Origin: a virus
Reading direction: 5' to 3' (one strand)
Virus record (IMG/VR): IMGVR_UViG_3300027833_001310
Span: 1 to 64,000 of that record
Length of the DNA: 64,000 nt
Of this stretch, positions 11,204-63,010 are shown piece after piece. How positions within the stretch are numbered: the first letter of the stretch is position 1; every line of letters begins with the position of its first letter. A model generated the notes under the pieces. That model was given only the letters and a program-made list of their open reading frames with translations, did no database searches and had not been told where the DNA came from. Made by a program: the position numbers and the translations under genes.

Positions 11204-12028
11204 ATGAATATTTTCGATATTACAGAAGCAAAAGCAAAAGTTGTTCGAGCTAGTGATAAAAAGCCAAAGAAAATAAAGCCTTCCACAGGACACGAAAGCC
11301 CACATCCAATGCAAGGTAAACTTGTAGGAGAGGGCAATCGACCTCAGAAGCCAAAGTCTTACAGTGCAAGAAATCCAGTTGCAAAGAATATTGAAAAGTT
11401 CAATAGACCTGCAACACACATGGACAAGAAAAAAGAAATGAAGAAGAAGGGACCTAAAATCCAAATGGATGAAGGCCCTTTAGTTTTACAAGGCAAATCC
11501 GGTGTTAACGGTATGCTTGACAGATTTCTAGATACATGGAAAAGTTCAGATCCTTCAGAAGAACAGTACGCAGATTTAATGAAAGTACTCGGCAAACACA
11601 TAGAATTTCAAGACGGTAAGAGAGTTGTCCTCACAGACTTAGAAGAAGGCAATATTGGTAAAGCAGTAGGTGCATTAGCACTAGTAGCAGCTTTAGGATA
11701 TGCTATGCCATCTGCTAAAGATAGCCCACTAGGTAAAGAATTACAACTAGCCGCACAACAAGGTGACACTGTAGCAGAATACCATTTAGATAATTTAGAT
11801 CTTTATATGGAAGCAAGTGATCAACGAACAATGATTAACTTAAAAATTGCATACATTGAAGATTCACCAAGAGAAGATGTTAAAGCATACTTAGCCAAGA
11901 AAGCAGGTATCGAAGAAGCAAAGAGTCCTACAAGCATGGATTGCTGGGACGGTTACAAAAAGGACGGCACAAAAGCAGGCACTGGCAAAAATAAGGGCAA
12001 GCGAGTAAACAACTGCGTTCCTAAGTAA
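11204..12028 (+). CDS. Modular putative internal head protein
   Basis: MNIFDITE N-terminus; short modules ending in CWDGYKK...VNNCVPK. Confidence 0.55.
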   Translation: MNIFDITEAKAKVVRASDKKPKKIKPSTGHESPHPMQGKLVGEGNRPQKPKSYSARNPVAKNIEKFNRPATHMDKKKEMKKKGPKIQMDEGPLVLQGKSGVNGMLDRFLDTWKSSDPSEEQYADLMKVLGKHIEFQDGKRVVLTDLEEGNIGKAVGALALVAALGYAMPSAKDSPLGKELQLAAQQGDTVAEYHLDNLDLYMEASDQRTMINLKIAYIEDSPREDVKAYLAKKAGIEEAKSPTSMDCWDGYKKDGTKAGTGKNKGKRVNNCVPK

Positions 12029-12048
12029 CAACTTAAAAGGAATACAAC

Positions 12049-12330
12049 ATGGACACACTTACAACGATGCTCACCGACCGGGTGTGGATCTACACTGCAA
12101 TCGCAGGATCACTACTAGGTGCAGCTTTCCTAGCATACTTTAAAGGAACAAAAGCAGGTATATGGGCTTACAGTAAGTTTGACCAGTTCCTAGACTTCTT
12201 AGTACAACGTTATGGATGGACGTGGTTTAAACAGGACGAGAACGCTTGGCGTAAACGTTACCCTAAAGTAACTGCAAAAATTGACAACCTCGAAGCAAGA
12301 ATCGCAAAACTAGAAAACAAAAAAAAGTAA
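12049..12330 (+). CDS. Small membrane protein
   Basis: One TM plus C-terminal coiled coil; AAGGA SD. Confidence 0.65.
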   Translation: MDTLTTMLTDRVWIYTAIAGSLLGAAFLAYFKGTKAGIWAYSKFDQFLDFLVQRYGWTWFKQDENAWRKRYPKVTAKIDNLEARIAKLENKKK

Positions 12331-12360
12331 AATCTCTCTGTATTATTGATAAGTAATACT

Positions 12361-13023
12361 ATGGGATATTATAAAAGAAATAACGGTTTTACTAGAGGCC
12401 CAGCCTGGGCAGAACAACCTTTTCAACATATAACACATGAGTTTTGGCCCGACTTAACAAAGTTAAGGGAAGAAGCACTAGCGGTTAGAGATTCTAATGA
12501 ACATAGATTAACTGTACAAGTACCTAACGGCAGAGACGATGTAGATGATGTTGTATTGGACTTTCAATTTGTAAGCGATCATACGCCAGTACTGCAACAG
12601 CATTGGCAAAACTTTCAAGACTGGTTTGGTGAGACTGGAGCTGCATACTGTCAATATTTCTATATAGATGCAAATGCAGATTACGAATGGCACAGAGATA
12701 ACGTTCTAAGAGACATAGAATACGACCCAAGAAAAGTTCAAGAAACTACTACAGCAGAAATACCTGACAAATATAAAGTTAATTCACAAACTAACTTTCC
12801 AGTACAATGTGCTATTAATGTAGTATTAACAGAAGATGGTTCAGAATGCGAGTTTTATGATTTTGGATCTTATAAATATACGGCTGGAATATTAAATACA
12901 TCTCACTTACATAGGGTTTTCCCTTCGGAGCAGAGAATACTAGCAAGGATTTCTTTTTTAGAATTATTATATGAAGAAGTTATCCACAGAGTTAGAAAAC
13001 TAGAAAAGAGGAATAAAAAATGA
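12361..13023 (+). CDS. 2OG-Fe(II) oxygenase-like protein
   Basis: WHRD...CAINVVL...LNTSHLHRV...R; start moved to the ATG after TAAGTA. Confidence 0.6.
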   Translation: MGYYKRNNGFTRGPAWAEQPFQHITHEFWPDLTKLREEALAVRDSNEHRLTVQVPNGRDDVDDVVLDFQFVSDHTPVLQQHWQNFQDWFGETGAAYCQYFYIDANADYEWHRDNVLRDIEYDPRKVQETTTAEIPDKYKVNSQTNFPVQCAINVVLTEDGSECEFYDFGSYKYTAGILNTSHLHRVFPSEQRILARISFLELLYEEVIHRVRKLEKRNKK

Positions 13024-13178
13024 TAGATTGGATTAAAGCAAGATTAAAAGAAAGAACAAGTTGGGACGGTAGCGTTCTAATTGGCGGTGGTATTGTAATG
13101 ATACTAGCACCTATAAACCTAATTGCATACGGCATGATAGCATACGGCCTGTGGACAATTGCAACCAAAGAAGGATAA
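13020..13178 (+). CDS. Small two-TM (holin-like) protein
   Basis: Hand translation MIDWIKARLKERTSWDGSVLIGGGIVMILAPINLIAYGMIAYGLWTIATKEG; overlaps both neighbours. Confidence 0.65.
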   Translation: MIDWIKARLKERTSWDGSVLIGGGIVMILAPINLIAYGMIAYGLWTIATKEG

Positions 13179-13345
13179 TGGCAAAAGCAGCACAACGCAA
13201 AAAGAACAAGTCGTTAATTAACGGCACAGGAAGAAAGTGTACATCAACTGGTATTGGTGGTAGAGGACGCAAAGTAAAAATTGCTATGTCTACTATGAAT
13301 AAAAGTAAAAAACGTTGTATGGCTATGAGTAGGGGGCAAGGATAA
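13178..13345 (+). CDS. Small basic protein
   Basis: MAKAAQRKK...SRGQG; coupled stop/start. Confidence 0.6.
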   Translation: MAKAAQRKKNKSLINGTGRKCTSTGIGGRGRKVKIAMSTMNKSKKRCMAMSRGQG

Positions 13346-13557: not shown

Positions 13558-13584
13558 ATTTGTATTTAGAAGATAAATACAATT

Positions 13585-16299
13585 ATGAAAATACATAATA
13601 TTACTGGACCATCGCAAATAACTGAACATGTTAAGGGTGGCCTCGACAGTTACTATCAGCTAACCAAAGCAAAACGTTTGGCAAAAGCAGACGGGCATGA
13701 CTATGACAAACTTCCTGAATACGATAGAGGTAAAGATCAACCTCACAAAGAAAAGTATATGGCTTTAGCAAAAGAAGTCAACGAAATGGACCAAGACGAA
13801 GTAGATACTGGACCAACTTGGAAAGATGATTTAGAAGATGCATTAGATGGTTATCCTGAATGGGCACATGAATATATCAAAGATGGTGTATGTCCTGAAT
13901 GTGGCGGTAATGGTTACATGGATGGTGACTACGAAAACGAAGATGGTGAAGAGAATGACGAGTGCAATGGCATGTATGACTATGATTGTGATGAAGGCGA
14001 AATCAGAGATAATACTTGGGCAGATGAATTAAAAAGCAAAGAGCCTGAAGCACCTAAACAACCAGCACCAAGCAAAGAACAAATTATGAAGATACTTCCT
14101 CGTTTACATGATGACTATGTAAAGACAGGAAGATACAATGCATTTGAATTAGGTGGCATACTTAAACAAATGTATCCAGAATTAAATAAAAGAGAAGCAG
14201 GTAGTTATGTAGCAGACTTCCTATCAAACTTCAAAGAAAGTGCTCAAGTAGAAGAATTAAACGATATAAGAAAAAGAGCCGGACTACCTATAAAAGAAAT
14301 AGAAGATAATGATTATGAAAAAGCATATGATTTTGAACCAACACCAGAAGCAGAAGCATGGTATAATTCTATAGTGGATCACGATGACCTCGATAACATG
14401 TATAACCAATGGGAAGAAGCATTTTCACAAGCCGACACTGAAGATAAAGTTGATGTAGCATTACATCATGTGCAAGGTTTATTAGCAGATGGGCCATTAG
14501 ACGATTATAATACTTTATGGCAAGCATGGGAACAAGATGAAGATATAGAAGATATGCTACCAAAATATCAAGCAATGGCAAAAAAATCAGCAGGAACTCC
14601 TGCACTTCCTATGATGGGAGAAGCAGAAGGTGATGACTGTAAAAAATGTAATGGCAAAGGAAAGATAGATTATCATTCCGAAGACGGTCCTAGCAAATGT
14701 CCAGATTGTAGCGGTAAAGGCAAGCAAAAGTGGAAGCCAGAACCAGTTAATTGGGGTAAGGTCAAAGAAGATGAAGGCGCTTATGCAAATTACGTTACTT
14801 ATGTTGGACCAAACGGAGAAGAATTAGGCACTGAAGATTACGATGGTGAATTAGAACCAGATATGATGGCTCAAATGGCATCAGATGAAGAATGCAAAAT
14901 GTTATGTGATAAACACAATATAGACTATAATGATACTATTGGTTGTTTGAAATTTGACGACGGAGAAGCAACAATGCAAGATGGTGAAGAATTACCAGAT
15001 GGCACAATAGCATTTTATGGTGGAAAAGATGGATCAATAGAAGTAGAAGAATTAAACGATATAAGAAAAAGAGCCGGACTACCTATAAAAGAAATAGAAG
15101 AAAATGAGCCCGGGTCGATGACCAGATATTTCTTACAACAAGACTTTACTCAAATGAGCCAAGGTAAAGCATCAGATATTGTAGGTGGAATTGCCGATGA
15201 AGTCTTCCCCAATTACGATATGCATGAAGATCCTTTAGATGGTGCTCTTGATGAATTGCATGATTTGTTAGACGACGAAACTATGAAAGGATATGATTTT
15301 GATAGAGGTGAAATGGATTATCCTGATACCAGTGAATTTTACTTATCTGACAATGATTATAAATCTTTACCAAAAATACAACAAATAGTACGAGCCAAGT
15401 ATATAGAAAGAATGAATGGTCCTGATATTAAAGATGAACTAAAGAATTACAACTTTACCAATGACAAACCACAAGAACTTCCAGGTATGAATGTACCTCA
15501 AGAATCAATTGAAGAAGCAGAAGAAAGCAGTGACGAAGTAATGGTTGCTAAAATGTTAGCAAAAGCATTAGGTGATCCTAATCGTTGGACTGAAATGTCA
15601 GCACCAGAGCTATACGCAGAACTTGAAAGTACTAATCCAGATGTAGCAGACATGATTAGCAAGGTTGCAAAGATGCTGTATGATGTTAAACTAGAAGAAC
15701 GAGCATACAAGGACGTTGGTGTTGCAGACACAGTCAAAGATCAACGTGGCAAAGAGTTTAACTTCGATAAAGGTAGTAAAAAGTTTAAGTCACAAGATGG
15801 CGAAGAAGCAGATGTTACTACTAAGTTAGGCAAAGACCTAATGAGGATTCGTAAGAATCAAATGAAGAAAACTACACCAAGTTATAAAACTAAAAAGAAT
15901 CAAGGACTAATGGCTTCATATGAATCTATAGAAGAAGCATACGGTGATAGCCATGAAATCACATTAGAAGATAACGAAGATTTTAATGATGTATTCGGAG
16001 TACTAGGCTACAGTTTATGTGAGCAAGATACATTCGAAGCAGAATACCAAGGACGTAAAGTTAAACTAAACAAGCCTATGCAAGGTGATGTTAAGAAGTT
16101 TAAGGTATACGTTAAAGATCCAAAAACTAAAAATGTTAAAAAAGTAAACTTTGGACACGGTGGAAGCAGTGTTAAAGGTAAGGCTATGAAGATTCGTAAA
16201 AATAATCCTAAGGCAAGAAAGAGCTTTAGAGCAAGACACAACTGCGACAATCCAGGACCAAAAACTAAGGCTAGATATTGGTCATGCAGGAAGTGGTAA
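13585..16299 (+). CDS. Large acidic modular putative internal head protein with CxxCxGxG zinc fingers and basic C-terminal domain
   Basis: CPECGGNG, CKKCNGKG, CPDCSGKG; two EELNDIRKRAGL; C-term KKVNFG..RKSFRARHNC..ARYWSC. Confidence 0.7.
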   Translation: MKIHNITGPSQITEHVKGGLDSYYQLTKAKRLAKADGHDYDKLPEYDRGKDQPHKEKYMALAKEVNEMDQDEVDTGPTWKDDLEDALDGYPEWAHEYIKDGVCPECGGNGYMDGDYENEDGEENDECNGMYDYDCDEGEIRDNTWADELKSKEPEAPKQPAPSKEQIMKILPRLHDDYVKTGRYNAFELGGILKQMYPELNKREAGSYVADFLSNFKESAQVEELNDIRKRAGLPIKEIEDNDYEKAYDFEPTPEAEAWYNSIVDHDDLDNMYNQWEEAFSQADTEDKVDVALHHVQGLLADGPLDDYNTLWQAWEQDEDIEDMLPKYQAMAKKSAGTPALPMMGEAEGDDCKKCNGKGKIDYHSEDGPSKCPDCSGKGKQKWKPEPVNWGKVKEDEGAYANYVTYVGPNGEELGTEDYDGELEPDMMAQMASDEECKMLCDKHNIDYNDTIGCLKFDDGEATMQDGEELPDGTIAFYGGKDGSIEVEELNDIRKRAGLPIKEIEENEPGSMTRYFLQQDFTQMSQGKASDIVGGIADEVFPNYDMHEDPLDGALDELHDLLDDETMKGYDFDRGEMDYPDTSEFYLSDNDYKSLPKIQQIVRAKYIERMNGPDIKDELKNYNFTNDKPQELPGMNVPQESIEEAEESSDEVMVAKMLAKALGDPNRWTEMSAPELYAELESTNPDVADMISKVAKMLYDVKLEERAYKDVGVADTVKDQRGKEFNFDKGSKKFKSQDGEEADVTTKLGKDLMRIRKNQMKKTTPSYKTKKNQGLMASYESIEEAYGDSHEITLEDNEDFNDVFGVLGYSLCEQDTFEAEYQGRKVKLNKPMQGDVKKFKVYVKDPKTKNVKKVNFGHGGSSVKGKAMKIRKNNPKARKSFRARHNCDNPGPKTKARYWSCRKW
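14246..14306 (+). repeat. 61-bp exact direct repeat, copy 1
   Basis: aagtagaagaattaaacgatataagaaaaagagccggactacctataaaagaaatagaaga. Confidence 0.95.
15041..15101 (+). repeat. 61-bp exact direct repeat, copy 2
   Basis: Identical to 14246..14306. Confidence 0.95.
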
Positions 16300-17101: not shown

Positions 17102-17643
17102 TGGATACATTATCAACTACAATACAAACCGATCGTCTTCAGACTGAGATGGATGCGTTTTTGGGTCATTATAACTTTTGGGAGTTACGGCAAATATCTC
17201 TTACTAGTTTAACTGGCGACGATGATTGGACTTGTTCTGTAGGTTCAGCACTAGCATTGCAGAAGCCAGAACGTATGTATAGTCAACTAAACAAATATTT
17301 AGAAGGCACATATATGGGCGAACTTATCAAAGAATACAACAAGTATTATAGATGGCGTCTACTACATATTCCAGCAGGGCAGTGCTACAGTGTACACTCA
17401 GATGCTTATACTAGTAAGATCAATAAACGAATACACATACCAATAACAACAAACCCTGATGCATACTTTTGTTACTATAGCGATAAGCCAGCAGACGGCC
17501 TTGAAACAACTGTAAAGTATCATCACATGCCGCTAGGTAGTGCATACGAAGTTAATACATCACAGTTACATAGTGCTATAAACTACGGTAAAACATCTAG
17601 ATATCATATGGTCGGTGTGAGATACGCTAAAGTAGATAAATAG
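17101..17643 (+). CDS. Aspartyl/asparaginyl beta-hydroxylase-like 2OG-Fe(II) oxygenase
   Basis: YSVHSD, RIHIPITTNP, NTSQLHSAIN, RYHMV. Confidence 0.75.
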   Translation: MDTLSTTIQTDRLQTEMDAFLGHYNFWELRQISLTSLTGDDDWTCSVGSALALQKPERMYSQLNKYLEGTYMGELIKEYNKYYRWRLLHIPAGQCYSVHSDAYTSKINKRIHIPITTNPDAYFCYYSDKPADGLETTVKYHHMPLGSAYEVNTSQLHSAINYGKTSRYHMVGVRYAKVDK

Positions 17644-17647
17644 TAGC

Positions 17648-19921
17648 ATGAAACAGGTTATTATATATCCAGGAAGATTCCAGCCAATGCTTTCGCATCA
17701 TGCAGAAGTATACAGCCAATTACAGAGTCAGTTTCCAGAAGCTGACGTATATATTGGAACCAGCGATAAAGTAGAAAGTGGTAAATCACCATTTACTTTC
17801 AAAGAAAAACAACTAATAGCACAGGCACACGGCATTGATCCTAGCAAAATATTGCAGGCAAAACGCCCTTACCATAAAGATGATTATCCTTTTGATGAGG
17901 ATAATACTGTTATTATTTTTGCTGTAGGCGAGAAGGATATGGATAGATTTCCTTTTAGTAATGTCAATTCTGAGACAGGATTAGACATGATGGTGAAAGA
18001 TAATTCCAAGCCAAAGTACTATCAGAAGATAAATACATATAGAACTGATCCAAAGCCAATGGCTGAACGTGGATACATAACACTTGCTCCTACTATATCA
18101 GTAGATAATGAAGTAGCAAGTGCTAGTGCTTTTAGAGATGCATTAAAAAATGCTCCAGATAAAGAAAGTGCTGAACAAGTATACACTAAGCAATTTGGAA
18201 ACTTTGATCCAAAAATATTTGAACTAATATACGGTAAAATTACAGGGCAAAACGATATGAACGAAGAACTAAATAAAATCAGAAAACTTGCAGGCATGCA
18301 GCCTCTAACAGAAAGTTTTGACCCATCAATGGAACCAAGCAGTGAGTCAACTATGTTTAACGATGCAATGGATGCATACGATGACCATGGTGAAGATGGC
18401 TTAGCACAACATTTAGGTATGAGCTCACAAGAGTTTGATCAAGAGCTTAATGAACTAGGCGCTGAAAAAGGTTTACATGCAGATGACAACCGTGACGAAC
18501 TAGTACAACTTCTTGTACAAGATCTTATAGACAATAGAGAAGTAGAGCAACATGAAGCAGTAGAAGAAGCTGCCGAAGAAGATACTAGAGAGATTGCAGT
18601 TAATAAAGCAATTCCACTTAGTGGTGATAGCATTTGGGACGAAAAGGGCGAAAATCCTAAGTCAGTAAATGTTGAAAGTGTTTCAGTAACTAACGATTTA
18701 GATGACGATAATTATTCATCTGTTAATGTTAAGCATGACGGTCCTTGGACTATATACACTGACACTGGTTTCGAAAAAGCAATATCAGAAATTGTAGGAT
18801 TCAAAGTCGTATTTACAGAACAAGGTATGCAAGAAGAGGGGATGGCAAGCATGGAAGGCAACACTGACGATATAGGTCAAAATGAAGACCTAGATAGAAT
18901 GAGACATTTAGCAGGACTCGAAGAAGCAGAAATGCCAGACTTTGATAAAGGTGAGCGTCCTAGTAATTCAAAAGAACGTGCCGCTTATCGTAAGTGGAAG
19001 AAAGACGGTTCTGCAAGTTCAAAAGATGACATGTCAGATGTAGTATCAATTAGTCCTAAAGACAAAAGAGATGCTGAAGCAAGACCTGCAAACGCAGCCG
19101 CAGCTGATCCATCTAAAGCACAATTTACAGATATTAATTTAGACACTATGAAAGTAGATGGTAAGTCTATTCCTAGTAGCCAACGTGCTAAAAGTATTGC
19201 AAACCAAATACCAGATAACGTAGACTTAAATGATCCAGCAGTTAAGAAAGAAGCATTCTTAAAGTTTACTGCAAAAAGACCAGACTTAATGCTTGGTGAG
19301 ATTAATGCACGTTTAACAAATGATGATGCAGGCTTAGCACTAAGCGATAGACTTAGTCCTATAGTAAGACAGTTAGAAGATAGTCGTAACATCATGGAAC
19401 TTGATAAAGAAGATAAAGCATTTGCTTTAAAAATATTAAACACTGCCATAAACAATATGGAATTAGTTAAATCTACAGACATTGACAAGCAAATTGACGT
19501 AGAGCCAATGCAAATGGATGTCGAAGACGAGCCAGAAATAGGCGACGACGAAATGGTACCAGTATTAGATGTAGAAGATGATGACACATTCGAAAAAGAA
19601 AGTGTAGATTTATCAAGCATCAGAGACGAGTACGGTATATCAGAAGAGCCTGAAGTTATTCAGAATAACGCATGTGAACAGTGTGGTAGCACAGAATGTG
19701 AGTGCGAACCAGGAACATGTGAGTGTGATCCAGTTGAAGAAGGTAGAATGAAAGACGTTATTCAGGATGCTATGGACATGAGTAGAGAAGAATTTGAACA
19801 AGCAAGACCCGGGTTTGATTATGATGAAGTACTTGCAGACTACGGTGATGAGTTAGACGAAGCAGTTGAAAACACAATTGATGTTGCTATAAGCGAGTTG
19901 AAGCAACTAGCAGGTATTTAA
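17648..19921 (+). CDS. HIGH-type nucleotidyltransferase domain fused to acidic modules
   Basis: IIYPGRFQP, SPFTFKEK, AVGEKD, SASAFR; three LAG-motif copies; Cys-rich CEQC..CECE..CECD. Confidence 0.7.
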   Translation: MKQVIIYPGRFQPMLSHHAEVYSQLQSQFPEADVYIGTSDKVESGKSPFTFKEKQLIAQAHGIDPSKILQAKRPYHKDDYPFDEDNTVIIFAVGEKDMDRFPFSNVNSETGLDMMVKDNSKPKYYQKINTYRTDPKPMAERGYITLAPTISVDNEVASASAFRDALKNAPDKESAEQVYTKQFGNFDPKIFELIYGKITGQNDMNEELNKIRKLAGMQPLTESFDPSMEPSSESTMFNDAMDAYDDHGEDGLAQHLGMSSQEFDQELNELGAEKGLHADDNRDELVQLLVQDLIDNREVEQHEAVEEAAEEDTREIAVNKAIPLSGDSIWDEKGENPKSVNVESVSVTNDLDDDNYSSVNVKHDGPWTIYTDTGFEKAISEIVGFKVVFTEQGMQEEGMASMEGNTDDIGQNEDLDRMRHLAGLEEAEMPDFDKGERPSNSKERAAYRKWKKDGSASSKDDMSDVVSISPKDKRDAEARPANAAAADPSKAQFTDINLDTMKVDGKSIPSSQRAKSIANQIPDNVDLNDPAVKKEAFLKFTAKRPDLMLGEINARLTNDDAGLALSDRLSPIVRQLEDSRNIMELDKEDKAFALKILNTAINNMELVKSTDIDKQIDVEPMQMDVEDEPEIGDDEMVPVLDVEDDDTFEKESVDLSSIRDEYGISEEPEVIQNNACEQCGSTECECEPGTCECDPVEEGRMKDVIQDAMDMSREEFEQARPGFDYDEVLADYGDELDEAVENTIDVAISELKQLAGI

Positions 19922-19923
19922 CA

Positions 19924-20268
19924 ATGAATGAAATACAAAGATTACAACAACTAGCAGGTTTATCAATCACTGAAGCAGAAACAGGTGACGAAGTTACTAA
20001 AACTGTAGCCGGTCATACTGATGATGAAAAAGATATGATTATGAAACAGTTATATCAAACAGGCAAGTACTGTGTAGAACTTTATAAGATGTTAGGTGAT
20101 ATGGATGAGAACACAGACTTCCCACATTGGTGGCAGGGTAAGATTGTTAAAGCAACTGACTACATTGGTGCAGCCAAACATTACTTAGAAAATGAAATTG
20201 AATCGCCTGACGTTGAAGTTACTGTAACACCAGATATAGAAGCCAACGATCCTTCAGGTGTTAGTTAA
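19924..20268 (+). CDS. Putative internal head protein, helical module
   Basis: MNEIQRLQQLAGLSITE then QLYQ..WWQGKIVKATDYI. Confidence 0.6.
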   Translation: MNEIQRLQQLAGLSITEAETGDEVTKTVAGHTDDEKDMIMKQLYQTGKYCVELYKMLGDMDENTDFPHWWQGKIVKATDYIGAAKHYLENEIESPDVEVTVTPDIEANDPSGVS

Positions 20269-27132: not shown

Positions 27133-27156
27133 GCTACTATTTATTTGGTTAAACCG

Positions 27157-41228: not shown

Positions 41229-41239
41229 ACTATTATTTA

Positions 41240-52218: not shown

Positions 52219-52219
52219 A

Positions 52220-53152: not shown

Positions 53153-53662
53153 TTAAATATTTTGCTGATGTCTAGACTTTTTAGGCTTGCCATAGCCTCC
53201 AGTTTGCAGAGTAGCCTCGGCATGCATTGCTGCCATGTGCTTTTTATATTTCTTAGTACCTTTTTTATGTGGGCTTTTACCTTCTCCCATGCTGATGCCA
53301 AAGTTGTTGTCTAGTAGATCTTCTATGTTAGTATCGTAGTCTACGACTTTAAAATTTTTGTCTATCAGTAATGCTACATTATCTTCGTAACCGTGATTCT
53401 CGCCACTAAGTATTTGATAACCATCTTCAATCTCTATAAGATCTTCTTGATATTCCCAAGCACTAATAATTTCTTCTTTTTTGCTTTGTGTAATTTCTGG
53501 GACTACTGCATTTTCATCAACTGCTTTCTTTTTCTTTTTCTTAGGAGTTGTATTAGCAAACACACTTGCATTAGGTCTTTTTTGCATGCCGCCTAGTGGA
53601 GCAGCAACTGTAGCAATACCACCTGCACTAGTTGTTTCTTGTATAATGTCATTAATCTTCAT
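53153..53662 (-). CDS. Modular putative internal head protein
   Basis: MKINDIIQE TTSAGGIATV; EGKSPHKKGTKKYKKHMAAMHA module. Confidence 0.55.
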   Translation of the reverse strand: MKINDIIQETTSAGGIATVAAPLGGMQKRPNASVFANTTPKKKKKKAVDENAVVPEITQSKKEEIISAWEYQEDLIEIEDGYQILSGENHGYEDNVALLIDKNFKVVDYDTNIEDLLDNNFGISMGEGKSPHKKGTKKYKKHMAAMHAEATLQTGGYGKPKKSRHQQNI

Positions 53663-53683
53663 AGTAGTATTTACCGTTTTTTA

Positions 53684-54220
53684 TTATGTTAGTCTAACGT
53701 TTACGATATCCCAGTTAATAATACGCCACATATTGTTTAAGTATTTGCCTTTGTCATGCTGGTAATCTAATGCCCAAGCATGTTCCCACCAGTCAACTAA
53801 CATTGCTATGTCATTTTTAACTTGGTGATTAACTATTGTTTTGATGTCGCCTGATGTACTCATGTATACCCAACCGCTACCTTGTATCTTCATTGCTACT
53901 TGTTCAAACTCTTCTTTGAATGCATTGTAGTTGCTATACTTGCTGTCTATTAGCTCTTTACTTGCACCAGTAGGGTTGTTACTGCCACTTGGTGCTTTTA
54001 GTTGTGGGAAGAATACATTGTGTAGGAATGCGCCTGCTTCCATAAACTGTGCATCGCCTTTGCCTTCGTTATATTTTGTAACGTATGCTTTTGCAAGTTT
54101 GCCATAATGAAAATTTATAGTGTCTTCGCTCATAACAGGATCAAGATCATTTTTACCGTAAGGTAACTTTTCTTGTACAAGTACTTTCTTTTCTTCTGTT
54201 AAAAATTCATTTAGTTTCAC
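53684..54220 (-). CDS. sod: Fe/Mn superoxide dismutase
   Basis: LPY..L.P, FHY, LHNVFF, QGSGW, DWWEHAW; four metal ligands present. Confidence 0.9.
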   Translation of the reverse strand: MKLNEFLTEEKKVLVQEKLPYGKNDLDPVMSEDTINFHYGKLAKAYVTKYNEGKGDAQFMEAGAFLHNVFFPQLKAPSGSNNPTGASKELIDSKYSNYNAFKEEFEQVAMKIQGSGWVYMSTSGDIKTIVNHQVKNDIAMLVDWWEHAWALDYQHDKGKYLNNMWRIINWDIVNVRLT

Positions 54221-54414
54221 TTCTTCTTCCCACCTTTCATATTAGCACACCATTGATACATTTTGCCTTTCTCGCCACTATACTTTTTAGCCTTTGCTTT
54301 CAAATCAGTAACTGAGCCTTTACAACTAGCACCTGCTTTCTTTACTCTGCCAGGTCTGCTTTTGCCTTTCTTTTTACCGTCAGTGAAATTTTCTGTAATT
54401 TCAACTATTTTCAT
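54217..54414 (-). CDS. Small basic putative internal head protein
   Basis: MKIVEITE NFTDGKKKG...WCANMK. Confidence 0.6.
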   Translation of the reverse strand: MKIVEITENFTDGKKKGKSRPGRVKKAGASCKGSVTDLKAKAKKYSGEKGKMYQWCANMKGGKKK

Positions 54415-57400
54415 TAGTTACTACTGTCTACAATTGATGTATTTGCAAATGGATTTTCATTTGTTGTTACAAGATAGTTTGTCTTTGCGTGTAGTCTTAA
54501 CCCGGAACCTTCTAAGTCTTTAACGTCTTGTATAAATGTAAACGTCTGCTTTTTAAGATCTAAGAAAAGTATTCCTTTAAGATTACCACCACCTCTTTTT
54601 GCTGCAAGATAGTTATTAACATTAGACTGTGCTATGGCTTGCATTGCACCGGTAATGTTATTTTGTGCTAAGTTTTGTGCTATCTGGTTGCCAGCATTAG
54701 GTATTTCTGTAAAGATATTTGAAATAATATCTGCTATTTCTTTTTCTGCTTCAGGTACTAACTTCAAGAAAGCTGCAACATGATTTTGTTGCATACCTGA
54801 TTTGACTCTTAACACTGCACCCTGTGCTTCTAGTTCTTTAAACTTCTCATCATACTTTGTAAAGAATGCTGTTACTTTAGACTTGTATGAATCTGATACA
54901 GTAACTTGTCTGTCATTAAATCTAGCAGAATTTTTTCTTGTTGTTTTTAATTCAATTGGTTGACCGTCAATCATTAAGTCACCTTTGCCATCGTCAGCAC
55001 CTGATGATGCTCCCATGCCGCCAATTCTCTGTGACAATACTGAAAGTGCAAACTCACCTGGGCCAATACCATACTGTACAACTTCATTTAAGTCGTTAAC
55101 TAATTCTGTTATGTGCTCGTTGCCTTCCATTCCGTAACCAACAAATATCTCAGACATAGTATCAGTAGATGTAGACAACAATGTATCAACTCTAACTAAT
55201 TTATCTCCCTTCCAATCTATGAAAAGTTTTGCTCTTTCTGCTGGCGTCATTTCTATACTTGCAATAATCTTTGCAATTTGTTTAATTGCTTTCTTAACAT
55301 CCTCATCAGGTACTTCACCTAATTGGCTGCTTAAACTTTGTATTTTACCACCTACGCCCATATCATCTAACAGTTGTTCAATGTAGTTAACTAATTTATT
55401 AGTTTTTTCATCATCTGGTAAGTCGGCTAATTTTTTGATCAGCTCTGATTTACTTTCAGTTATTCCTGCTTTCTTTTTAGTTTCTGGGTGTACTTTGTTT
55501 TGTACAAAACCTTTGAATATAGTACGCAAATCAGTGTCTGGTCCACCGCCACTAGCTGCTTCTCTGAATGCTCTGATCATACTAGGATCTGGTACTACAA
55601 AGTATGCTTCCATTTGCGATTTTAAATCACTAGCAAGTAAAGGAACATTTAATAACTGTTTTATTTTCTTTACAGGTGAGTTGTCTGGTACAGCACCTTC
55701 TGTATATTTTGCTGCTCTGCCTGATCCTGACTTGTTAGGATGTTCAAATCCTTTGCCTTTCTTTTTCTTTTTACCAGGCGTACCGTAAGTAGTTAATAAT
55801 GCAGCCATATCTTGTTCTGCTTCAATAGTTTCATTTAATTTTTTCTTAGATACTATTAGTGCTTCGTTTATCTTCGTAGCATCAACTTTACTAACTATTT
55901 CTAACTGTTTTTTAAATGGTAATTTGTTAAAATTCTCAAACATGTTATTACTCTCTTCTATATCACTAAATCTTATATTCATTTCTTGCGCCATGTATTC
56001 TCTTTCTGATGCATCAGTTTCTTGGTGTGTTCCTACTATGAATGGACTCTTTTCCCCTGCAAGGCTAAATGCGTCTGGATTGAAATCTCTATCTCTGTAA
56101 GGTAGGAAGCCATGCTTCTTGCTAAAAGTATCTATTTTTACTTTAGCATCTAATGTCTGTTCTTGATATCTTTCGGCTTTTTGTTTTCTATGAATTATTA
56201 AATCTTTTATTCTTTTTATCTTTTCATCTGTTTCGGTATCTTCGTTAGTTCTACTACTTCCCTGTGCATGTGCAGGGTGATCAGCATCTATTAGGTCTGT
56301 AGTATCAACCCCGCCTGCTTTGTATGCTGATACTATCGATGATACTTCATCCCACTGTACAGGATTGCCACCGTTTTCCTTGTTGTACACTAATGCATTT
56401 AGAACATCTTGTTTTGCATTATTACTTGTTTCTAAGTTGTTAATCCATCTTGCTAGTTTTACAGCATTAACTCTTGGATCAGCCATGAAGTGACCGAATC
56501 CAGTGAACCACATTTTTTTATAGAGAGGAAAATCATTTTCCGCCATCTCAATTGCTGCTTGATTACTAAAAGTAGATGGGTCATTATCTGACGCATCTGA
56601 GGTACCTGTTGTGCCTAGTTGCTCTAATTCTTTTTCATAGTCGGCAACCATTTTAAGTTCGCCTTGAGCATCAATCATTCCTTCATTGTAATCATATAAT
56701 GCTCTGTATACTTCATTATGTTCATCGCGACTAATAGCTTTAAAATCTTCTGCTTTAAACTTTTTACCCGGAGGTGTCTTTATTGGAGCTCCTGATATAA
56801 GTTTGTTACCCATTTCTGTTTGGAGCCAATTGTAGTATGGTACTGGTAAAAACAATGCATCGGTGCCGTTGTACTTAACAGTAAATTCTGGTGTTGGTGC
56901 TTTTGCTACCTTAACTTTGAATGCGTTATTAAACGCATCAGCAAACTTTGTCATGTTATCGTGGTAAGGTGACCCACCAATATTTAACATAGGTACATAT
57001 TGTTTACTTGCTAAAAATTCTTTATAAAGAGATTCTGGTGTGAATCCAAAATCTTTCATTGCTTGTCTAAAGCCTGCTACTTGTTGCACTTTAACAGGAT
57101 TACGATTTTTCCCTGTTGCTATAGAACTTAGTAGATAACCAAAAGCAGTAAGACTGTAATCACGAGCACGATCATTCCAACTCTCTTCTTCTTTGATAAT
57201 ACTTTCTTCTGCGTTCTCTCTTTTAGATCTTGCAAGTGCATTGTATGCTGTAGCAAGAGCGTCTATAGCGTCGGTGTAATGATTTTTGCCCACCACACTT
57301 TTAAATGCATCTACTACTTTCTTATCAGTATTATCTGGGTCAATTCTACTAGATGCTCTTTCTTCTTGGTCTGGATCAATCGCATCTAAACTATTAACGA

Positions 57401-59282
57401 AACGGAATAATGCTTTAATATAATCTTTTCTAAAAGCCTCTTTATCGTGTCCTGCTCTCATAACTGCTGCATATCGTATTGTTGTTTTAGCAACGGTGTC
57501 AAAGTCCATGTGGTACCCGTCACCACCTGCTATACGAAATTCAATCAAGCCATTGCCATCATCATTTGTTGCATCTTTAAAATTAATACTGGTAAACTTA
57601 CCAGCACTAATACCGCCTTTGAGCATATCTTCTAAAGCTGAAAGGGTTTTTTCGTCTTTGTAATTAGCACCTACATTTTGCATGTATTGTTGTATTTCTT
57701 TTACTTGCGACTTAGTATAACTGTTACCATCTCTGTTAAACTGTTGTAACAAATATTTGTCACCAAGTAATAATGCAATCTTTAATTTGTTAGGTGCTTC
57801 TTGATTGCCCGCCATACTCATTGTAACATGTAGTCCAGTAGATCTATTTGTATCTACATTTCTATCACTCCAATGTGAAAATAAACTTTTCATTTCGGCA
57901 AGCATTTCTGTTGGGGTGTCGTACACTGGTGAAATAATTTCAGCACCCATTCCGTCACCTTCGATACTGCTGTCGTCTTCTACTCGCCAGTAATCGTTGT
58001 CAACTTGTTGACCACTGTGGTAATCTCCTGCTTCAACGTTGTCTGATTTACTTGAGTTACTTGCCCAGTCACGAAGCTGATCTGCAACTTCTTCCATGCT
58101 ACCTTGACTGTTGCTGTAAAGATATATGTCCATCTCACTTAGCAACGATCCCCAGTTGCCGTTGTATTCTTCACTACACCAATCATCTTCGTCGACATTG
58201 CTTAATGCTCGATCCCATGCTTCGTCCCACTGCTCGCCATTGTCTCTGATATCATCTGCTAACCATTCTAAAAAGTGATCTTCGCGTTCGGCATCAACAT
58301 ATTCTCTGGCCCATGCATCTTCTTCCCAGTCACTTCGTTCTTCTATTTCTTCCTGTGCTTGACGATCATCTTGATCTTCTAAACCCTGTAGTATCATTTC
58401 TTTGTAGTTTGTTACATCATCCATGTCAACTTCGTATGAAACATAATTATCTAAATAGTCAGGATCTTCTTTGCGTTCGTCTACTAGTTCATTTATTACT
58501 TCACTTTCGTAATCATAAAACTTATCAGACTCTTGTAGCCATTCTCTAAATGCTTCATTTACTTGGTCAACACTTCTAGAGCCTTCTTGATCATATATTA
58601 AGTCTTGTACTCCAGACCAGTTTTCACCATATAGAAAGTCCTCATCATCGTCGCCCGATGAAAAGCCTTCCCATATTGTTTCTGCTTCAAAACCACATCT
58701 AATGTTTGCGTTTAATGAATCTTTTGCAACTGTAGGACTATTGAAATTTATTTCAAATATTGGATCACCTTGTTGTATATATTTTTGTGCTCTGATTAAT
58801 CTTTTGATTTTACTTTTAATTTTTTGCTTACGCTTTTGTCCTTTGTGAAGATCTGATCTTTCTGTTACTGCTTCTTCACCTGGTAATGTAATATCATCTT
58901 CAGGATCTAATGTATAAAATTCTTTGTTCTTTTGATTTTGTACAACAACTGCATCTTTGTTTAGGCCGTTGTTTACAGGGCTCATTACTTTAACTGTATT
59001 GCCTTTGTCGTCTTGGTATTCGAAGTCTTGTGCTAACTCTTTTGCTTTTGATATAATTGGCTCAACTGGTTCTGGTTGTTCAGCGTCTGTTTTATTTTGC
59101 TGACTGCTAGGACTAACTTGTGGTTTATTAACACTGGACTTTGGCGGCTTAGGTGTCTTAGTGGCTGCTGTTGCTTTAGCAGTTGCACCAGTCTGTTGTT
59201 GTGATGAGGGAGTGCTTACTCCGCTATTCATTCCATACTCAGAGATCAGTGATTTGATTGTGCGAATATCTTTTGCCTTCAT
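54414..59282 (-). CDS. 1622-aa multidomain protein: amidoligase-like domain plus C-terminal PD-(D/E)xK nuclease-like domain
   Basis: GFEAE, DSSI..EIISP, STGLHV, INF, IEFR; C-term GPGE..KGDLMIDGQPIELK. Confidence 0.75.
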   Translation of the reverse strand: MKAKDIRTIKSLISEYGMNSGVSTPSSQQQTGATAKATAATKTPKPPKSSVNKPQVSPSSQQNKTDAEQPEPVEPIISKAKELAQDFEYQDDKGNTVKVMSPVNNGLNKDAVVVQNQKNKEFYTLDPEDDITLPGEEAVTERSDLHKGQKRKQKIKSKIKRLIRAQKYIQQGDPIFEINFNSPTVAKDSLNANIRCGFEAETIWEGFSSGDDDEDFLYGENWSGVQDLIYDQEGSRSVDQVNEAFREWLQESDKFYDYESEVINELVDERKEDPDYLDNYVSYEVDMDDVTNYKEMILQGLEDQDDRQAQEEIEERSDWEEDAWAREYVDAEREDHFLEWLADDIRDNGEQWDEAWDRALSNVDEDDWCSEEYNGNWGSLLSEMDIYLYSNSQGSMEEVADQLRDWASNSSKSDNVEAGDYHSGQQVDNDYWRVEDDSSIEGDGMGAEIISPVYDTPTEMLAEMKSLFSHWSDRNVDTNRSTGLHVTMSMAGNQEAPNKLKIALLLGDKYLLQQFNRDGNSYTKSQVKEIQQYMQNVGANYKDEKTLSALEDMLKGGISAGKFTSINFKDATNDDGNGLIEFRIAGGDGYHMDFDTVAKTTIRYAAVMRAGHDKEAFRKDYIKALFRFVNSLDAIDPDQEERASSRIDPDNTDKKVVDAFKSVVGKNHYTDAIDALATAYNALARSKRENAEESIIKEEESWNDRARDYSLTAFGYLLSSIATGKNRNPVKVQQVAGFRQAMKDFGFTPESLYKEFLASKQYVPMLNIGGSPYHDNMTKFADAFNNAFKVKVAKAPTPEFTVKYNGTDALFLPVPYYNWLQTEMGNKLISGAPIKTPPGKKFKAEDFKAISRDEHNEVYRALYDYNEGMIDAQGELKMVADYEKELEQLGTTGTSDASDNDPSTFSNQAAIEMAENDFPLYKKMWFTGFGHFMADPRVNAVKLARWINNLETSNNAKQDVLNALVYNKENGGNPVQWDEVSSIVSAYKAGGVDTTDLIDADHPAHAQGSSRTNEDTETDEKIKRIKDLIIHRKQKAERYQEQTLDAKVKIDTFSKKHGFLPYRDRDFNPDAFSLAGEKSPFIVGTHQETDASEREYMAQEMNIRFSDIEESNNMFENFNKLPFKKQLEIVSKVDATKINEALIVSKKKLNETIEAEQDMAALLTTYGTPGKKKKKGKGFEHPNKSGSGRAAKYTEGAVPDNSPVKKIKQLLNVPLLASDLKSQMEAYFVVPDPSMIRAFREAASGGGPDTDLRTIFKGFVQNKVHPETKKKAGITESKSELIKKLADLPDDEKTNKLVNYIEQLLDDMGVGGKIQSLSSQLGEVPDEDVKKAIKQIAKIIASIEMTPAERAKLFIDWKGDKLVRVDTLLSTSTDTMSEIFVGYGMEGNEHITELVNDLNEVVQYGIGPGEFALSVLSQRIGGMGASSGADDGKGDLMIDGQPIELKTTRKNSARFNDRQVTVSDSYKSKVTAFFTKYDEKFKELEAQGAVLRVKSGMQQNHVAAFLKLVPEAEKEIADIISNIFTEIPNAGNQIAQNLAQNNITGAMQAIAQSNVNNYLAAKRGGGNLKGILFLDLKKQTFTFIQDVKDLEGSGLRLHAKTNYLVTTNENPFANTSIVDSSN

Positions 59283-59292: not shown

Positions 59293-59574
59293 TTACCGCT
59301 TGTTAAGTGTTTTTAATCGCTTTGCTACTGGATTAAATCTTTTTGTTCTACGAGCTTTACGAATCATTCTTTTGCCCATTTTTGCTTTTGTTCTTCTCAA
59401 TGTCATACGCTTTTTGAGATCTATGGGTTTCGAACATTGGCTTGAATTTTTTACAACTCTGCCTGCTCTAGGACCACTAGTACAACGAACAGCACGTTTA
59501 ATTGTGTTGCCCATTCGGCGCCAAACCATACGAGCTTCGACTATTTCACCGCCTGTTACTTCATCAAGTTTCAT
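59293..59574 (-). CDS. Small very basic protein
   Basis: MKLDEV..E ARMVWRR..RCTSG.R.GRVV..C. Confidence 0.6.
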   Translation of the reverse strand: MKLDEVTGGEIVEARMVWRRMGNTIKRAVRCTSGPRAGRVVKNSSQCSKPIDLKKRMTLRRTKAKMGKRMIRKARRTKRFNPVAKRLKTLNKR

Positions 59575-59823: not shown

Positions 59824-60228
59824 TTATAATAAGTCCTGTTTAGTAAACTCCATGTTCACTGTAGTTTTTGTATCAATTGTGCCTGCATTTAAAACAATTC
59901 CGTCAAGTTCATCTTTTAATGTATCAATGCTATGCACACTTTCACGCTCAAAAGCAAATTTGAAAATCCAGCCTGCGCCTGTTATTGATGGAGCACCGTA
60001 TCCTTGTAATACGTTAGCACCTACACCATTTAAGGCAACTGGTCTGTTCATGATGATTGGCATAGCTCTTAATCCAATAACTTGAACAACACTTTCAAAA
60101 TCCTTCTGCGTGTCATCTGTAAAATCACCTGTATGTGTAATATCTAGTGATGTGAAAAGTGTGTAAAATTCTATATTTCCTGTAACAACTTCTTGGCTGT
60201 TCATTGCGCCGCTTCTATTTAAAGTCAT
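59824..60228 (-). CDS. Putative virion protein
   Basis: Late TAAATA plus AGGAG SD. Confidence 0.6.
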   Translation of the reverse strand: MTLNRSGAMNSQEVVTGNIEFYTLFTSLDITHTGDFTDDTQKDFESVVQVIGLRAMPIIMNRPVALNGVGANVLQGYGAPSITGAGWIFKFAFERESVHSIDTLKDELDGIVLNAGTIDTKTTVNMEFTKQDLL

Positions 60229-60365: not shown

Positions 60366-60659
60366 TTAGCCTGCGAATGAAACCACTGCTGCCCATGCAC
60401 AACCAGTTACGCCTAATGCATCTGAAGAATCATCAGCAATTGCTGGTCCGCCTTCGTATGCTACGTGAACTGCTGTTGCTACGTCTACTACAAATCCTTC
60501 GATTCCAGTAATAGTATAGTTTTGCACTGTGATTGCTGCTATTAAAGCATCCATCTTCGCTTGCGTCATGTTAGTTGAAACTGTTGCTGTTGCAACATGT
60601 AATTGTCTTCCGAATGCATTTAGGTCTTCTGTGAAACCATGTACTCTTGTTTGTGCCAT
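60366..60659 (-). CDS. Small Ala/Val/Thr-rich putative capsid decoration protein
   Basis: Own late promoter, SD and terminator. Confidence 0.6.
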   Translation of the reverse strand: MAQTRVHGFTEDLNAFGRQLHVATATVSTNMTQAKMDALIAAITVQNYTITGIEGFVVDVATAVHVAYEGGPAIADDSSDALGVTGCAWAAVVSFAG

Positions 60660-60769: not shown

Positions 60770-61012
60770 TTAACCGAATGTTGCGATTAATGTAGCGCCA
60801 GTAATACTAGGTGTTGCCGCTGCGCCTTGTAAAGCGATGTGACTTCCACTTACTATACCTTCTACTGCTACAACTATGAAGCCTTCTGCTTGTGCTTCAG
60901 CAACTGCTGCTGCAACTGTTACTGCTGTAACGTCATCTACTTCTAAGATGTGAGTTGTACCTACGAATCCGTTTGCTGCTCTTACTGCTGCGTTTGGGTT
61001 TGCTTGTGCCAT
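60770..61012 (-). CDS. Small Ala/Val/Thr-rich putative capsid decoration protein
   Basis: Similar to 60366 gene; own late promoter and AGGAG SD. Confidence 0.6.
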   Translation of the reverse strand: MAQANPNAAVRAANGFVGTTHILEVDDVTAVTVAAAVAEAQAEGFIVVAVEGIVSGSHIALQGAAATPSITGATLIATFG

Positions 61013-61103
61013 TTTAATTCTCCTAAATATAATGTAGAGTTAATTCTTACTCTATGTAGTTATTTATCATTTTATCGGTAAAAAAAGATATAAAAACTGT
61101 CTT

Positions 61104-61649
61104 TTATGATTTTTTAACTCTAAAAGTATCAGAATTTTTAAAGTTAGACCTTGCTTTTGCCAATCCACTACCGATTGCTTTTCTTAAACTTGATCGATCG
61201 GTGCCGGCAAGAGGATTAAATTTTGAATTTTTAAAAGAGCCATCACCTTTATAAGCATTTTTATTGCCTATTTGTCCACCTACAGTTCCTGTTGGCGTTG
61301 GCGTAGCATCCGGCTTTTCCATGCCCTTTGCAATTTTCTGCTGTAAGGTATCTTCCGGCTCTTTTACTTTATCGGCCGTTGCAACTGCTTTGGCCTGATC
61401 TTTTGTCATGCCACTGTATTTTACTTGAAAGTCTGGATATCTTTGTTTGACAGCACCCTTTATTGACATGCCAGCTGTCCACAAAGGTCTTTTGTAATAG
61501 CCTACTGCTAGTGCAACAACACTTGCTCTGTCTAACATTATAAATTGAGGCAGTTTCGGATTGCCGTATTCGTCATCAAATTCCTGTCCTAATTCCTGTC
61601 TTAGCTCAGCATCGTTATTTTCTAGTATAATAATTTCGTCTATTCTCAT
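61104..61649 (-). CDS. Putative internal head protein
   Basis: MRIDEIIILE N-terminus; TAAATA-N5-ATG. Confidence 0.55.
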   Translation of the reverse strand: MRIDEIIILENNDAELRQELGQEFDDEYGNPKLPQFIMLDRASVVALAVGYYKRPLWTAGMSIKGAVKQRYPDFQVKYSGMTKDQAKAVATADKVKEPEDTLQQKIAKGMEKPDATPTPTGTVGGQIGNKNAYKGDGSFKNSKFNPLAGTDRSSLRKAIGSGLAKARSNFKNSDTFRVKKS

Positions 61650-61661
61650 GCTTGTATTTAT

Positions 61662-62204
61662 CTACTTAAACATAGCACAAGACATATTGTCGTCATGGCC
61701 GGTCTCAAACACTGCTAATTCTTTGTTTGTCCTTTGCTGGAATGCATCTACCGCAGCCATTACCCCTGGGAATATAGGCGTATAATCATCTACTAATATA
61801 ATTTCTGCTTTTGTCATTATTCTTAATGCATTACGAGTATGCCTATAAGTATGAGAAGCATCAAGAAATAACACTGTTGGTGTCTCCCAATACCTCTTGA
61901 AAAAATCACATCTAGTAAATGATATGTTGTCCCATGCGTCTACTACCTGGCTAATATACTCTAGTTGTTGTTCGCTAGTGTATGATATTCCGTCTATATT
62001 AAAGCCATGACATTGGTCAATAGTATGTATAGTATAATCTCTGCCTGTTTCATTGAACTTTTCAGCAAAGGTAGCTGCTGACAAACCACATCCTGTGCCA
62101 ACTTCTAGTAACGTGCCAGACATAGGCAATTGATCAATAATTTCGTCCCATGGGTAATTTTTATTAGAGAACCCTGGAATAGTATCGCTGAGTTCGATTG
62201 ACAT
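61662..62204 (-). CDS. Class I SAM-dependent methyltransferase
   Basis: LEVGTGCGLS, TIDQ, FLDASH.Y, VDDY. Confidence 0.8.
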   Translation of the reverse strand: MSIELSDTIPGFSNKNYPWDEIIDQLPMSGTLLEVGTGCGLSAATFAEKFNETGRDYTIHTIDQCHGFNIDGISYTSEQQLEYISQVVDAWDNISFTRCDFFKRYWETPTVLFLDASHTYRHTRNALRIMTKAEIILVDDYTPIFPGVMAAVDAFQQRTNKELAVFETGHDDNMSCAMFK

Positions 62205-62209
62205 TATAC

Positions 62210-63010
62210 TTATTTCTTCTTTCTACCAGCTGCCCAATAGCCTGCAATTGCACCTATACCTGTGCCTGCTTTTTTAAGTGTACCAGGTTTATTTTTAGCA
62301 AGTTTTGTTAGTTTCTTAGCGGCATATCTTCCTGCAACTGCACCAAGTGCTGCTCCACCAACTTTTTTTGCAAAACTAGTTCTAGGTACATCATATGCTG
62401 GCTCTGACGTAAATGATCTATACTTGACCATAGATGTCATTGGAGCTAAAAGTTCACTGCCTCTTCCTAAGTAACGCATTGTTTGTAATAGTTTAGTCAC
62501 TACTAACTGTCTACTTGAAAATTTTAAGTTACCCCAGTCGGTAATATATCTACGGTATTGTTTAAATTTAGAATCTGTAACCTTAAGTTGTGACTCTAGT
62601 CTAAAGAAGTAACCTACTGCTTCATTTTTTCTATCTGAACCATTTGCTATCTTCTTCATAAACATAAAGTGCTTACGACTATCAAAGTTTAATCCCTTAA
62701 GGAAAGAAACACTAGACATTCTGTTCTTTAATTGTATTTTATCATTCTTAGGTTGATTTATCATATATGCTAATAGATATAAATCAGTTGCACTTGTTCT
62801 AAAAGTATTGTAGCCACCGTACTGGGTAGTTTGCTTTGCATAGTTACTTGCATATCCATGCTGTATATCATCTTGTACCATTAAATAAAGTGCAATAGTA
62901 TTGAGATACAGTAAGTCAGCAACGTTTCTGCCAGTGAGTTGACCCATGTTACCAGAAGATCTATACAATCTACTTTCTGATATTTCTTGATCTATAAATT
63001 CTAATTCCAT
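62210..63010 (-). CDS. Hypothetical protein with C-terminal glycine zipper
   Basis: GGAALGAVAG...GTGIGAIAG. Confidence 0.6.
   Translation of the reverse strand: MELEFIDQEISESRLYRSSGNMGQLTGRNVADLLYLNTIALYLMVQDDIQHGYASNYAKQTTQYGGYNTFRTSATDLYLLAYMINQPKNDKIQLKNRMSSVSFLKGLNFDSRKHFMFMKKIANGSDRKNEAVGYFFRLESQLKVTDSKFKQYRRYITDWGNLKFSSRQLVVTKLLQTMRYLGRGSELLAPMTSMVKYRSFTSEPAYDVPRTSFAKKVGGAALGAVAGRYAAKKLTKLAKNKPGTLKKAGTGIGAIAGYWAAGRKKK

Follow-up and report, generated by a model that had tools for sequence, protein, structure and literature searches.

The first 64,000 bases (hereafter the window) of the 92,052-bp IMG/VR virus record IMGVR_UViG_3300027833_001310 encode a set of proteins that begin with the same short leader, roughly of the form M-K/R-I/L-x-D/E-I/F/V-(x)-I/L-x-E. 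We think it likely that this leader is a capsid-targeting sequence (CTS) of the phage T4 type, removed by a protease, and that it destines about a dozen proteins for the interior of the phage head. A preliminary description of this DNA had listed 11 such N-termini and read them as a T4-like address for capsid targeting. All 11 were recovered in place, each at the first start codon of the longest open reading frame (ORF). Every test that we ran came out in favour of the T4-like reading, including those asking whether tagged proteins are absent from virions and whether non-virion proteins carry the leader as well.

The record is about 25% complete as estimated by CheckV and therefore represents a fragment of an uncultured jumbo phage; its G+C content is 0.36-0.40 and it contains 10 tRNA genes. 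No near relative was found when 13 kb of the block of tagged genes was compared by megablast with 50,697 phage records. Protein searches led to the Arenbergviridae, namely the Pseudomonas jumbo phage PA5oct and phages akin to it, and also to Sinorhizobium phage Phosso. By synteny and protein matches PA5oct is the closest cultured relative, and the order DnaB-like helicase, a run of genes of unknown function (small and large ones mixed), exonuclease, large structural protein and ribonucleotide reductase (RNR) subunits is common to both. We found 11 related loci with the 1622-aa tagged protein described below and 11 with an 837-aa protein of the window; the same leaders are present on the orthologs encoded there and on additional proteins. 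One distant relative, a contig of 89,367 bp (G006) whose version of the 837-aa protein is 48% identical, carries the tagged block too.

In T4 an N-terminal CTS of about 10 residues brings internal proteins, and foreign ones, to the scaffolding core, and is removed by the protease gp21 (as described in passages of PMC9958956, PMC3012670, PMC10229621 and PMC5694885). The T4 leaders (NC_000866) are MKTYQEFIAE in ipII and ipIII, MKTFKEF...ITE in ipI, MELITELFDE in Alt, MAKINELLRE in gp24 and MLKEQLIAE in gp22. As in IPI, IPII, IPIII and Alt, the leader described here is short and N-terminal, ends in I/L-x-E and stands on unrelated proteins, some of them small and basic. The architecture is the same and the likeness is at the level of pattern only, the consensus being MKTYQEFIAE in T4 and MK-I/L-N-D/E-I/F-I/L-x-E here. 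Alike, too, is the lineage, since relatives of the record encode a Peptidase_S77 of the gp21 type that shares the catalytic dyad of the T4 enzyme, and their head genes stand in the T4 order. The two systems differ in the number of tagged proteins (about 12-15 in 92 kb here, a handful in T4), in the clustering of most tagged genes here into a single block that lies between the genes for the helicase and the exonuclease, and in the predicted cargo, which here and in relatives includes recognizable enzymes (Fe/Mn superoxide dismutase (SOD), Cu/Zn SOD, Acb1-like and ParB-like proteins) and a protein of 1622-2139 aa. In T4, experiments have shown that the CTS by itself is enough to package a foreign protein; the leader of this record is read from sequence.

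Apart from the leader the tagged proteins do not resemble one another. In an all-against-all BLASTP comparison of 16 proteins with the first 20 residues removed, no pair was better than E = 0.025 (a value that holds within a database of 16 sequences), and by that measure the proteins are unrelated, as the preliminary description had maintained. Because there is no similarity beyond the leader, paralogy was discarded as its cause. A signal peptide was rejected as well, since the leader reads as acidic and amphipathic, without a hydrophobic core. A pattern fitted to the window matched 8 of 115 N-termini. Its frequency was lower at internal Met sites (2 of 686; Fisher p = 5e-6) and at arbitrary positions (27 of 26,470). 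When only the first six residues were specified and the first Glu from position 7 onward was considered, I, L or V stood at the P3 position of the predicted cut in 9 of 11 N-termini, compared with 15 of 121 internal look-alike sites (p = 2e-6). The same six-residue comparison in G006 gave 4/7 N-termini and 21/134 internal sites (p = 0.019). An equal frequency of the leader on early, non-virion proteins had been named as a finding that would speak against the capsid reading. It occurs on none of the 16 enzymes outside the tagged set that could be assigned by Pfam or PHROG, namely ClpX, PTPS, SNase, a cell-wall hydrolase, UvdE, GH6, phosphomannomutase, an NTP-transferase, an Rv2179c-like exoribonuclease, GT2, a class-3 lipase, an S8 subtilase, the large and small RNR subunits, an exonuclease and a methyltransferase.

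The leader is conserved at the protein level. Among orthologs of the protein that begins MKINDIIQE, several synonymous differences are spread across the nine leader codons while the residues are unchanged, which indicates selection on the peptide rather than on the DNA. In the alignments of ten families indels occur within the leader, and the hydrophobic-x-E stays immediately before the conserved mature part. The leader also behaves as an add-on to known folds, since the core of the tagged SOD aligns only from residue 17 and the domain of the tagged DUF6267 protein begins at residue 27. The SOD (178 aa, 53684-54220 on the minus strand, leader MKLNEFLTE, with a GTG start overlapping the upstream stop) is assigned to the Fe/Mn family by its C-terminal (Pfam, 5.5e-21) and N-terminal (4.9e-9) domains. 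In the alignment with PDB 8avm, residue 17 of the phage protein falls on residue 5, and about 12 residues stand before the point at which solved FeSOD chains start. A homolog search returned 2121 proteins at E ≤ 1e-10 among 2146 candidates, of which the best 120 were examined; these share 60-98% identity with the query, and their contigs reach 353 kb. Within these best 120, 119 have a recognizable LPY core, which is preceded by at least 12 residues in 115; 113 of the 115 long leaders have [ILV]xE 8-12 residues before the core, with Leu (101), Ile (7) or Val (5) at P3. Two long leaders have no [ILV]xE and four homologs begin directly at the core. The remainder of the SOD leader is highly variable, for example MKVNDLLTE, MRDLITLVE and MTTVRDLITIVE.

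Translation initiation or base composition might also generate common N-termini, through A/T-rich early codons (Lys, Ile, Asn, Asp, Glu) on late and possibly leaderless mRNAs of a genome with 37% G+C. The motif [AGT]TAAATA resembles the T4 late promoter; of its 75 copies in the record, 10 stand exactly 5 nt before an ATG. Within the window these sites lie at 13572-13587, 17635-17650, 27130-27145, 41226-41241, 52216-52231, 53660-53675 and 61647-61662, usually in the form G-A/G-TAAATA-C/G, and several G006 genes are preceded by the same arrangement. The 5-nt spacing suggests that T4-late-type transcription would start at or next to the start codon and yield leaderless late mRNAs. A late sigma factor is annotated in PA5oct; tblastn found no homolog of it in G000 or G006. 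The motif stands ahead of three tagged genes (13585, 53662 and 61649), which together with the G+C content of the record, the commonness of MK starts and the failure of an unsupervised pair test to reach significance (below) could be taken to favour such an effect. However, seven other genes with the same spacing (17648, 27132, 41228, 52218, 70707, 87860 and 90274) have no leader, and most tagged genes begin by stop-start overlap. Neither the retention of residues through synonymous codon change, nor the fixed distance between the Glu and the SOD core in 113 of those 115 homologs, nor the absence of the leader from 16 assigned enzymes of the same genome fits an effect of composition, to which we attach very little probability.

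A targeting leader of the T4 type calls attention to the head protease. T4 gp21 cleaves after Glu in I/LxE motifs, and H85 and S140 are named as its catalytic residues (in the parts of PMC12991175 that deal with the enzyme). Peptidase_S77 was detected in G006 (E = 7.8e-26) and in PA5oct (E = 7e-25), where gp331 is the only match. Both proteases are 36-37% identical to T4 gp21 and retain H85 and S140. The genes around them follow the T4 order of portal, small protein, acidic protein, protease, scaffold-like protein and capsid. The small protein encoded beside the portal gene, where T4 has gene 67, begins MKINDIITE in PA5oct (gp333, a virion protein by mass spectrometry (MS)) and MKIMEFYE in G006. 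A second 'head maturation protease' is annotated in PA5oct far from the head module (gp212, L042 2920-3591; record 180349-181020) and is marked as detected by MS.

The leader might be a propeptide and nothing else, serving for instance to keep proteins inactive or soluble until it is removed, with other parts of each protein directing incorporation into the prohead. The documented specificity of the enzyme covers just the I/L/V-x-E end, and long propeptides, the role of which is uncertain, are in use among giant phages like phiKZ and SPN3US. A bare cleavage site, however, would not need shared upstream residues, yet M-K/R-I/L-x-D/E-hydrophobic is common to unrelated proteins and kept through synonymous change. 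Moreover, the tagged proteins range from a 65-aa basic peptide through an SOD to a 1622-aa protein with nothing else in common. We regard a role as propeptide only as unlikely and prefer a leader that is both targeting signal and substrate.

For the presence of tagged proteins in virions, the proteome of PA5oct serves as a proxy. The window-derived pattern picks five of 504 PA5oct ORFs of at least 35 aa (called with our own caller): gp333, gp246, gp105, gp104 and gp103. PA5oct, which encodes an S77 protease, has the leader on these five proteins, fewer than found here. The preliminary description had held that absence of tagged proteins from virions would contradict it; instead, four of the five bear the record note 'ESI-MS/MS' (electrospray ionization tandem mass spectrometry), which denotes detection in CsCl-purified virions. 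The note is carried by 93 of 461 PA5oct genes overall (hypergeometric p = 0.0066). It is also found on most genes of the syntenic run from DnaB to exonuclease/RNR and on gp223, the homolog of the SOD. The passages of the PA5oct paper that we consulted mention no leader, CTS, propeptide, processing or late-promoter motif. The genes for gp105, gp104 and gp103 are adjacent (L043 33677-35300; record 260677-262300) and their products start MRLNEINLIE, MKILEFNLTE and MKLSEICILE. An HExxH motif is present in gp105 (HELRHALD) and gp104 (HELQHALD), both of which were detected in virions, so these two may be packaged metallopeptidases.

The same data bear on a recognition tag for a system other than the prohead, such as the phage's own ClpX unfoldase or another route of late sorting or degradation. 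ClpX can recognize N-terminal motifs. The record encodes a ClpX homolog with a zinc finger and an AAA domain (841-2109, minus strand, untagged), and genes annotated as ClpX, ClpA and ClpS-like are present in PA5oct. However, the tagged PA5oct proteins are stable enough to appear in CsCl-purified virions, the leader also marks the small protein whose gene lies between those for the portal and the protease, and the conserved Glu with I/L/V at P3 fits the motif of the head protease. A tag of this kind therefore appears very unlikely.

Several points weigh against the enrichment of the leader or against its being a CTS. The gene calls are our own longest-ORF calls. The pattern was written post hoc, after the data had been seen, and was for this reason applied unchanged to G006, where it matched 5 of 100 N-termini and 1 of 503 internal Met sites (p = 6e-4). 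An unsupervised count of ungapped BLOSUM pairs over residues 2-10 gave 35 pairs scoring at least 12 against null means of 24-30, which is not significant; owing to the variable spacing of the leader this test has little power. A definition taken from T4 alone ([IL]xE anywhere in residues 6-16) is weakly enriched (22/114 vs 70/681). The N-terminus MKINFDVDID (71075-71644), encoded among replication genes, fits the head of the pattern but lacks I/L-x-E, and in one ortholog (L021) Gln replaces the predicted P1 Glu. The large tagged proteins have an ordinary density of internal [IL]xE (1.05-1.26 per 100 aa) and would thus be either cut further or have these sites buried. Searches of the 92-kb record for Peptidase_S77 and Gp23 returned nothing, and no protease, scaffold or capsid gene was found in it, so that the link to a protease rests on relatives; among these, Peptidase_S77 was not found in nine of ten contigs searched, all of them fragments. 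In PA5oct, tagged gp103 escaped detection by MS, and the ESI-MS/MS list also holds enzymes such as RNR and thymidylate synthase, seven of its members being counted as 'virion-unrelated enzymes' in the PA5oct paper. Since metabolic enzymes are on the list, presence by MS is no proof of packaging in the head.

We infer a sequence of docking, cleavage, packaging and injection that would run much as in T4. Late in infection the tagged proteins would be made together with the head proteins, and through the leader of about 8-17 residues they would dock onto the scaffolding core while the prohead assembles. After closure of the shell, the gp21-type serine protease (Peptidase_S77) would cut past the Glu of the terminal I/L/V-x-E. 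The leader would then leave, and the mature protein would remain in the head beside the DNA until infection, when it would be released into the host. The cargo predicted in this way comprises several small and very basic proteins, a compact Fe/Mn SOD, the DUF6267 protein and the 1622-aa protein.

The predicted leaders of the individual proteins are 8-17 aa long, or 23 aa in one case. Two tagged genes lie apart on the plus strand. The first (11204-12028) encodes a 274-aa basic protein with the leader MNIFDITE, a predicted mature isoelectric point (pI) of 9.4 and a match to Pfam DUF7230 at residues 56-87, and the second (13585-16299) a 904-aa acidic protein with the looser leader MKIHNITGPSQITE; TAAATA stands 5 nt before the ATG of the latter. 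All other tagged genes of the window are on the minus strand. A 112-aa protein with MLIREVISE (49879-50217) is the ortholog of PA5oct gp246 (MKIKDILVE), which has the ESI-MS/MS virion note. The 434-aa protein encoded at 50219-51523 starts MFLKEF, has a predicted leader of 23 residues with LKE at residues 21-23, and matches PHROG 14154 ('virion structural protein') as well as gp247 of PA5oct, which MS detected in virions. PHROGs of this annotation are matched by three tagged proteins of the record, the other two being of 90 and 231 aa. A Lys-rich protein of 169 aa (53153-53662) carries MKINDIIQE and has TAAATA 5 nt before its ATG. Beside the SOD gene, a 65-aa very basic protein (54217-54414) begins MKIVEITE; its mature form would have a pI of 10.3 and consist of 33% K+R. 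The 1622-aa protein (54414-59282, leader MKAKDIRTIKSLISE) has orthologs of 1570-2139 aa, which retain hydrophobic-x-E ahead of a conserved Tyr; searches with it gave no Pfam or PHROG match and no usable Atlas match. An extremely basic protein of 93 aa (59293-59574, leader MKLDEVTGGEIVE) has a mature pI of 12.0 and 38% K+R. The remaining two are a 181-aa basic protein with MRIDEIIILE (61104-61649), again with TAAATA 5 nt before the ATG, and a 266-aa basic protein of pI 10.3 (62210-63010, leader MELEFIDQEISE), in which ISE is present in seven of seven distinct aligned orthologs. The gene for the 429-aa DUF6267 protein (63010-64299, leader MRFIEISKPLVTRVINE) starts just past the end of the window, which contains its C-terminal part (63010-64000). 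The domain is the Pfam one noted above, and no PDB sequence matched at E ≤ 1. Further leaders lie beyond the window at 64300-67164 (MILRDSLNTKLNLYE), 67151-67423 (MRKTRSIIEE) and 90724-91419 (MKLLNEYITE).

Five tagged proteins are strongly basic after predicted removal of the leader (pI 9.4-12.0, up to 38% K+R), against a median of 5.4 for the genome; T4 ipI-III have pI values of 8.9-9.5. The small, very basic ones are probably bound to DNA like the T4 internal proteins. The predicted cargo of the record further includes the Fe/Mn SOD, the DUF6267 protein and three large acidic proteins (904, 954 and 1622 aa). In two related loci (L011 and L013) the genes that directly follow the giant one encode proteins of 683-695 aa in which the leader stands ahead of Cu/Zn SOD domains (about 1e-43). 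Literature searches, judged by titles and the starts of abstracts, found no report of a phage-packaged SOD. A 260-aa protein from the tagged block of G006 that starts MRLFELAE has an Acb1-family domain (Pfam 1.1e-26; PDB 7t26, 3.8e-9), with both H-x-T motifs seen in the alignment, and would be an Acb1-like anti-CBASS phosphodiesterase. This candidate cargo is confined to G006, the 92-kb record having no match to the Acb1 family. In T4 the Acb1 gene, 57B, adjoins ipI (L041 13591-14410), and its N-terminus MMEFKDFS resembles MKTFKEFT of ipI. G006 also encodes a 245-aa protein in which the leader precedes a ParB-like nuclease domain.

Untagged proteins are encoded within the tagged block as well. 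Three small ones (59824-60228, 60366-60659 and 60770-61012, minus strand) include two, from 60366-60659 and 60770-61012, that like their relatives elsewhere all start MAQ (MAQTRVHGF, MAQANPNAAV, MAQTDRRSAA). The one of 134 aa has a homolog in PA5oct, gp250, which MS found in virions. The 837-aa protein (46222-48735, minus strand), a homolog of the PA5oct virion protein gp243, has 0.24 [IL]xE per 100 residues compared with 1.13 genome-wide, or about 2 sites where about 9.5 are expected. Such a low count might fit a protein that has to survive the head protease, although this is a single case. Stretches of the form ...L/K-A-G-I/L... directly before E or I-x-E, a loose pattern, were seen at five sites among 115 proteins, including the products of 11204-12028, 17648-19921 and 19924-20268 (plus strand) and 54414-59282 (minus strand); an example is MNEIQRLQQLAGLSITE, the start of the 114-aa protein encoded at 19924-20268. 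They may mark further cleavage sites. Untagged enzymes that are unusual for a phage are GH6 (20271-21119 -, 1.3e-49), a class-3 lipase (36292-37098 -, 2.1e-27), an S8 subtilase (38289-39920 +, 5.9e-22), a UvdE UV-endonuclease (8364-9413 -, 3.4e-39) and the ClpX homolog noted above.

Two other phage systems invite comparison. The jumbo phages phiKZ, 201phi2-1 and SPN3US have a prohead protease related to that of T4, with cleavage after Glu. Propeptides in these phages are mostly of more than 100 residues, with A-x-E or S/A/G-x-E at the cut, and are regarded as signals that bring proteins into the prohead (PMC5694885). A long propeptide of the phiKZ/SPN3US type was rejected for the phage described here, the leaders of which are 8-17 residues long with I/L/V at P3 in the T4 style. 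In phage P1 the N-terminal 30 residues of DarB, an anti-restriction cargo, suffice to send a heterologous protein into the capsid. P1 is a phage of another type, the signal concerns a single protein, and the passages of PMC9024508 at hand describe neither a shared consensus nor cleavage at I/L-x-E.

The kind of leader is already known from T4; noteworthy here are the number and nature of the predicted cargo proteins and the reach of the leader across a large group of uncultured phages. Two unrelated SOD families, an anti-CBASS-type nuclease (CBASS, cyclic oligonucleotide-based antiphage signalling system), a ParB-like nuclease-domain protein, HExxH proteins and a protein of 1600-2100 residues would all be unusual contents of a phage head. 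We tentatively suggest, as a possibility rather than as our expectation, that the leader is a plug-in address with which a widespread group of uncultured jumbo phages stocks the head in advance with an exchangeable set of active enzymes for delivery along with the DNA. If so, sister lineages would have independently tagged two unrelated SOD families at the same genomic position (Fe/Mn here, Cu/Zn in L011 and L013), and SOD activity in the capsid or at entry would itself be selected. A packaged Acb1-like nuclease would then destroy CBASS signals in the first seconds, before phage gene expression. Because PA5oct is cultured and has the same leader on five proteins, these ideas are open to experiment. 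In engineered jumbo phages the leader might provide a handle for packaging, as the T4 CTS does for T4. If it works as in T4, the packaged, and probably injected, proteins of many uncultured jumbo phages would become predictable from sequence.

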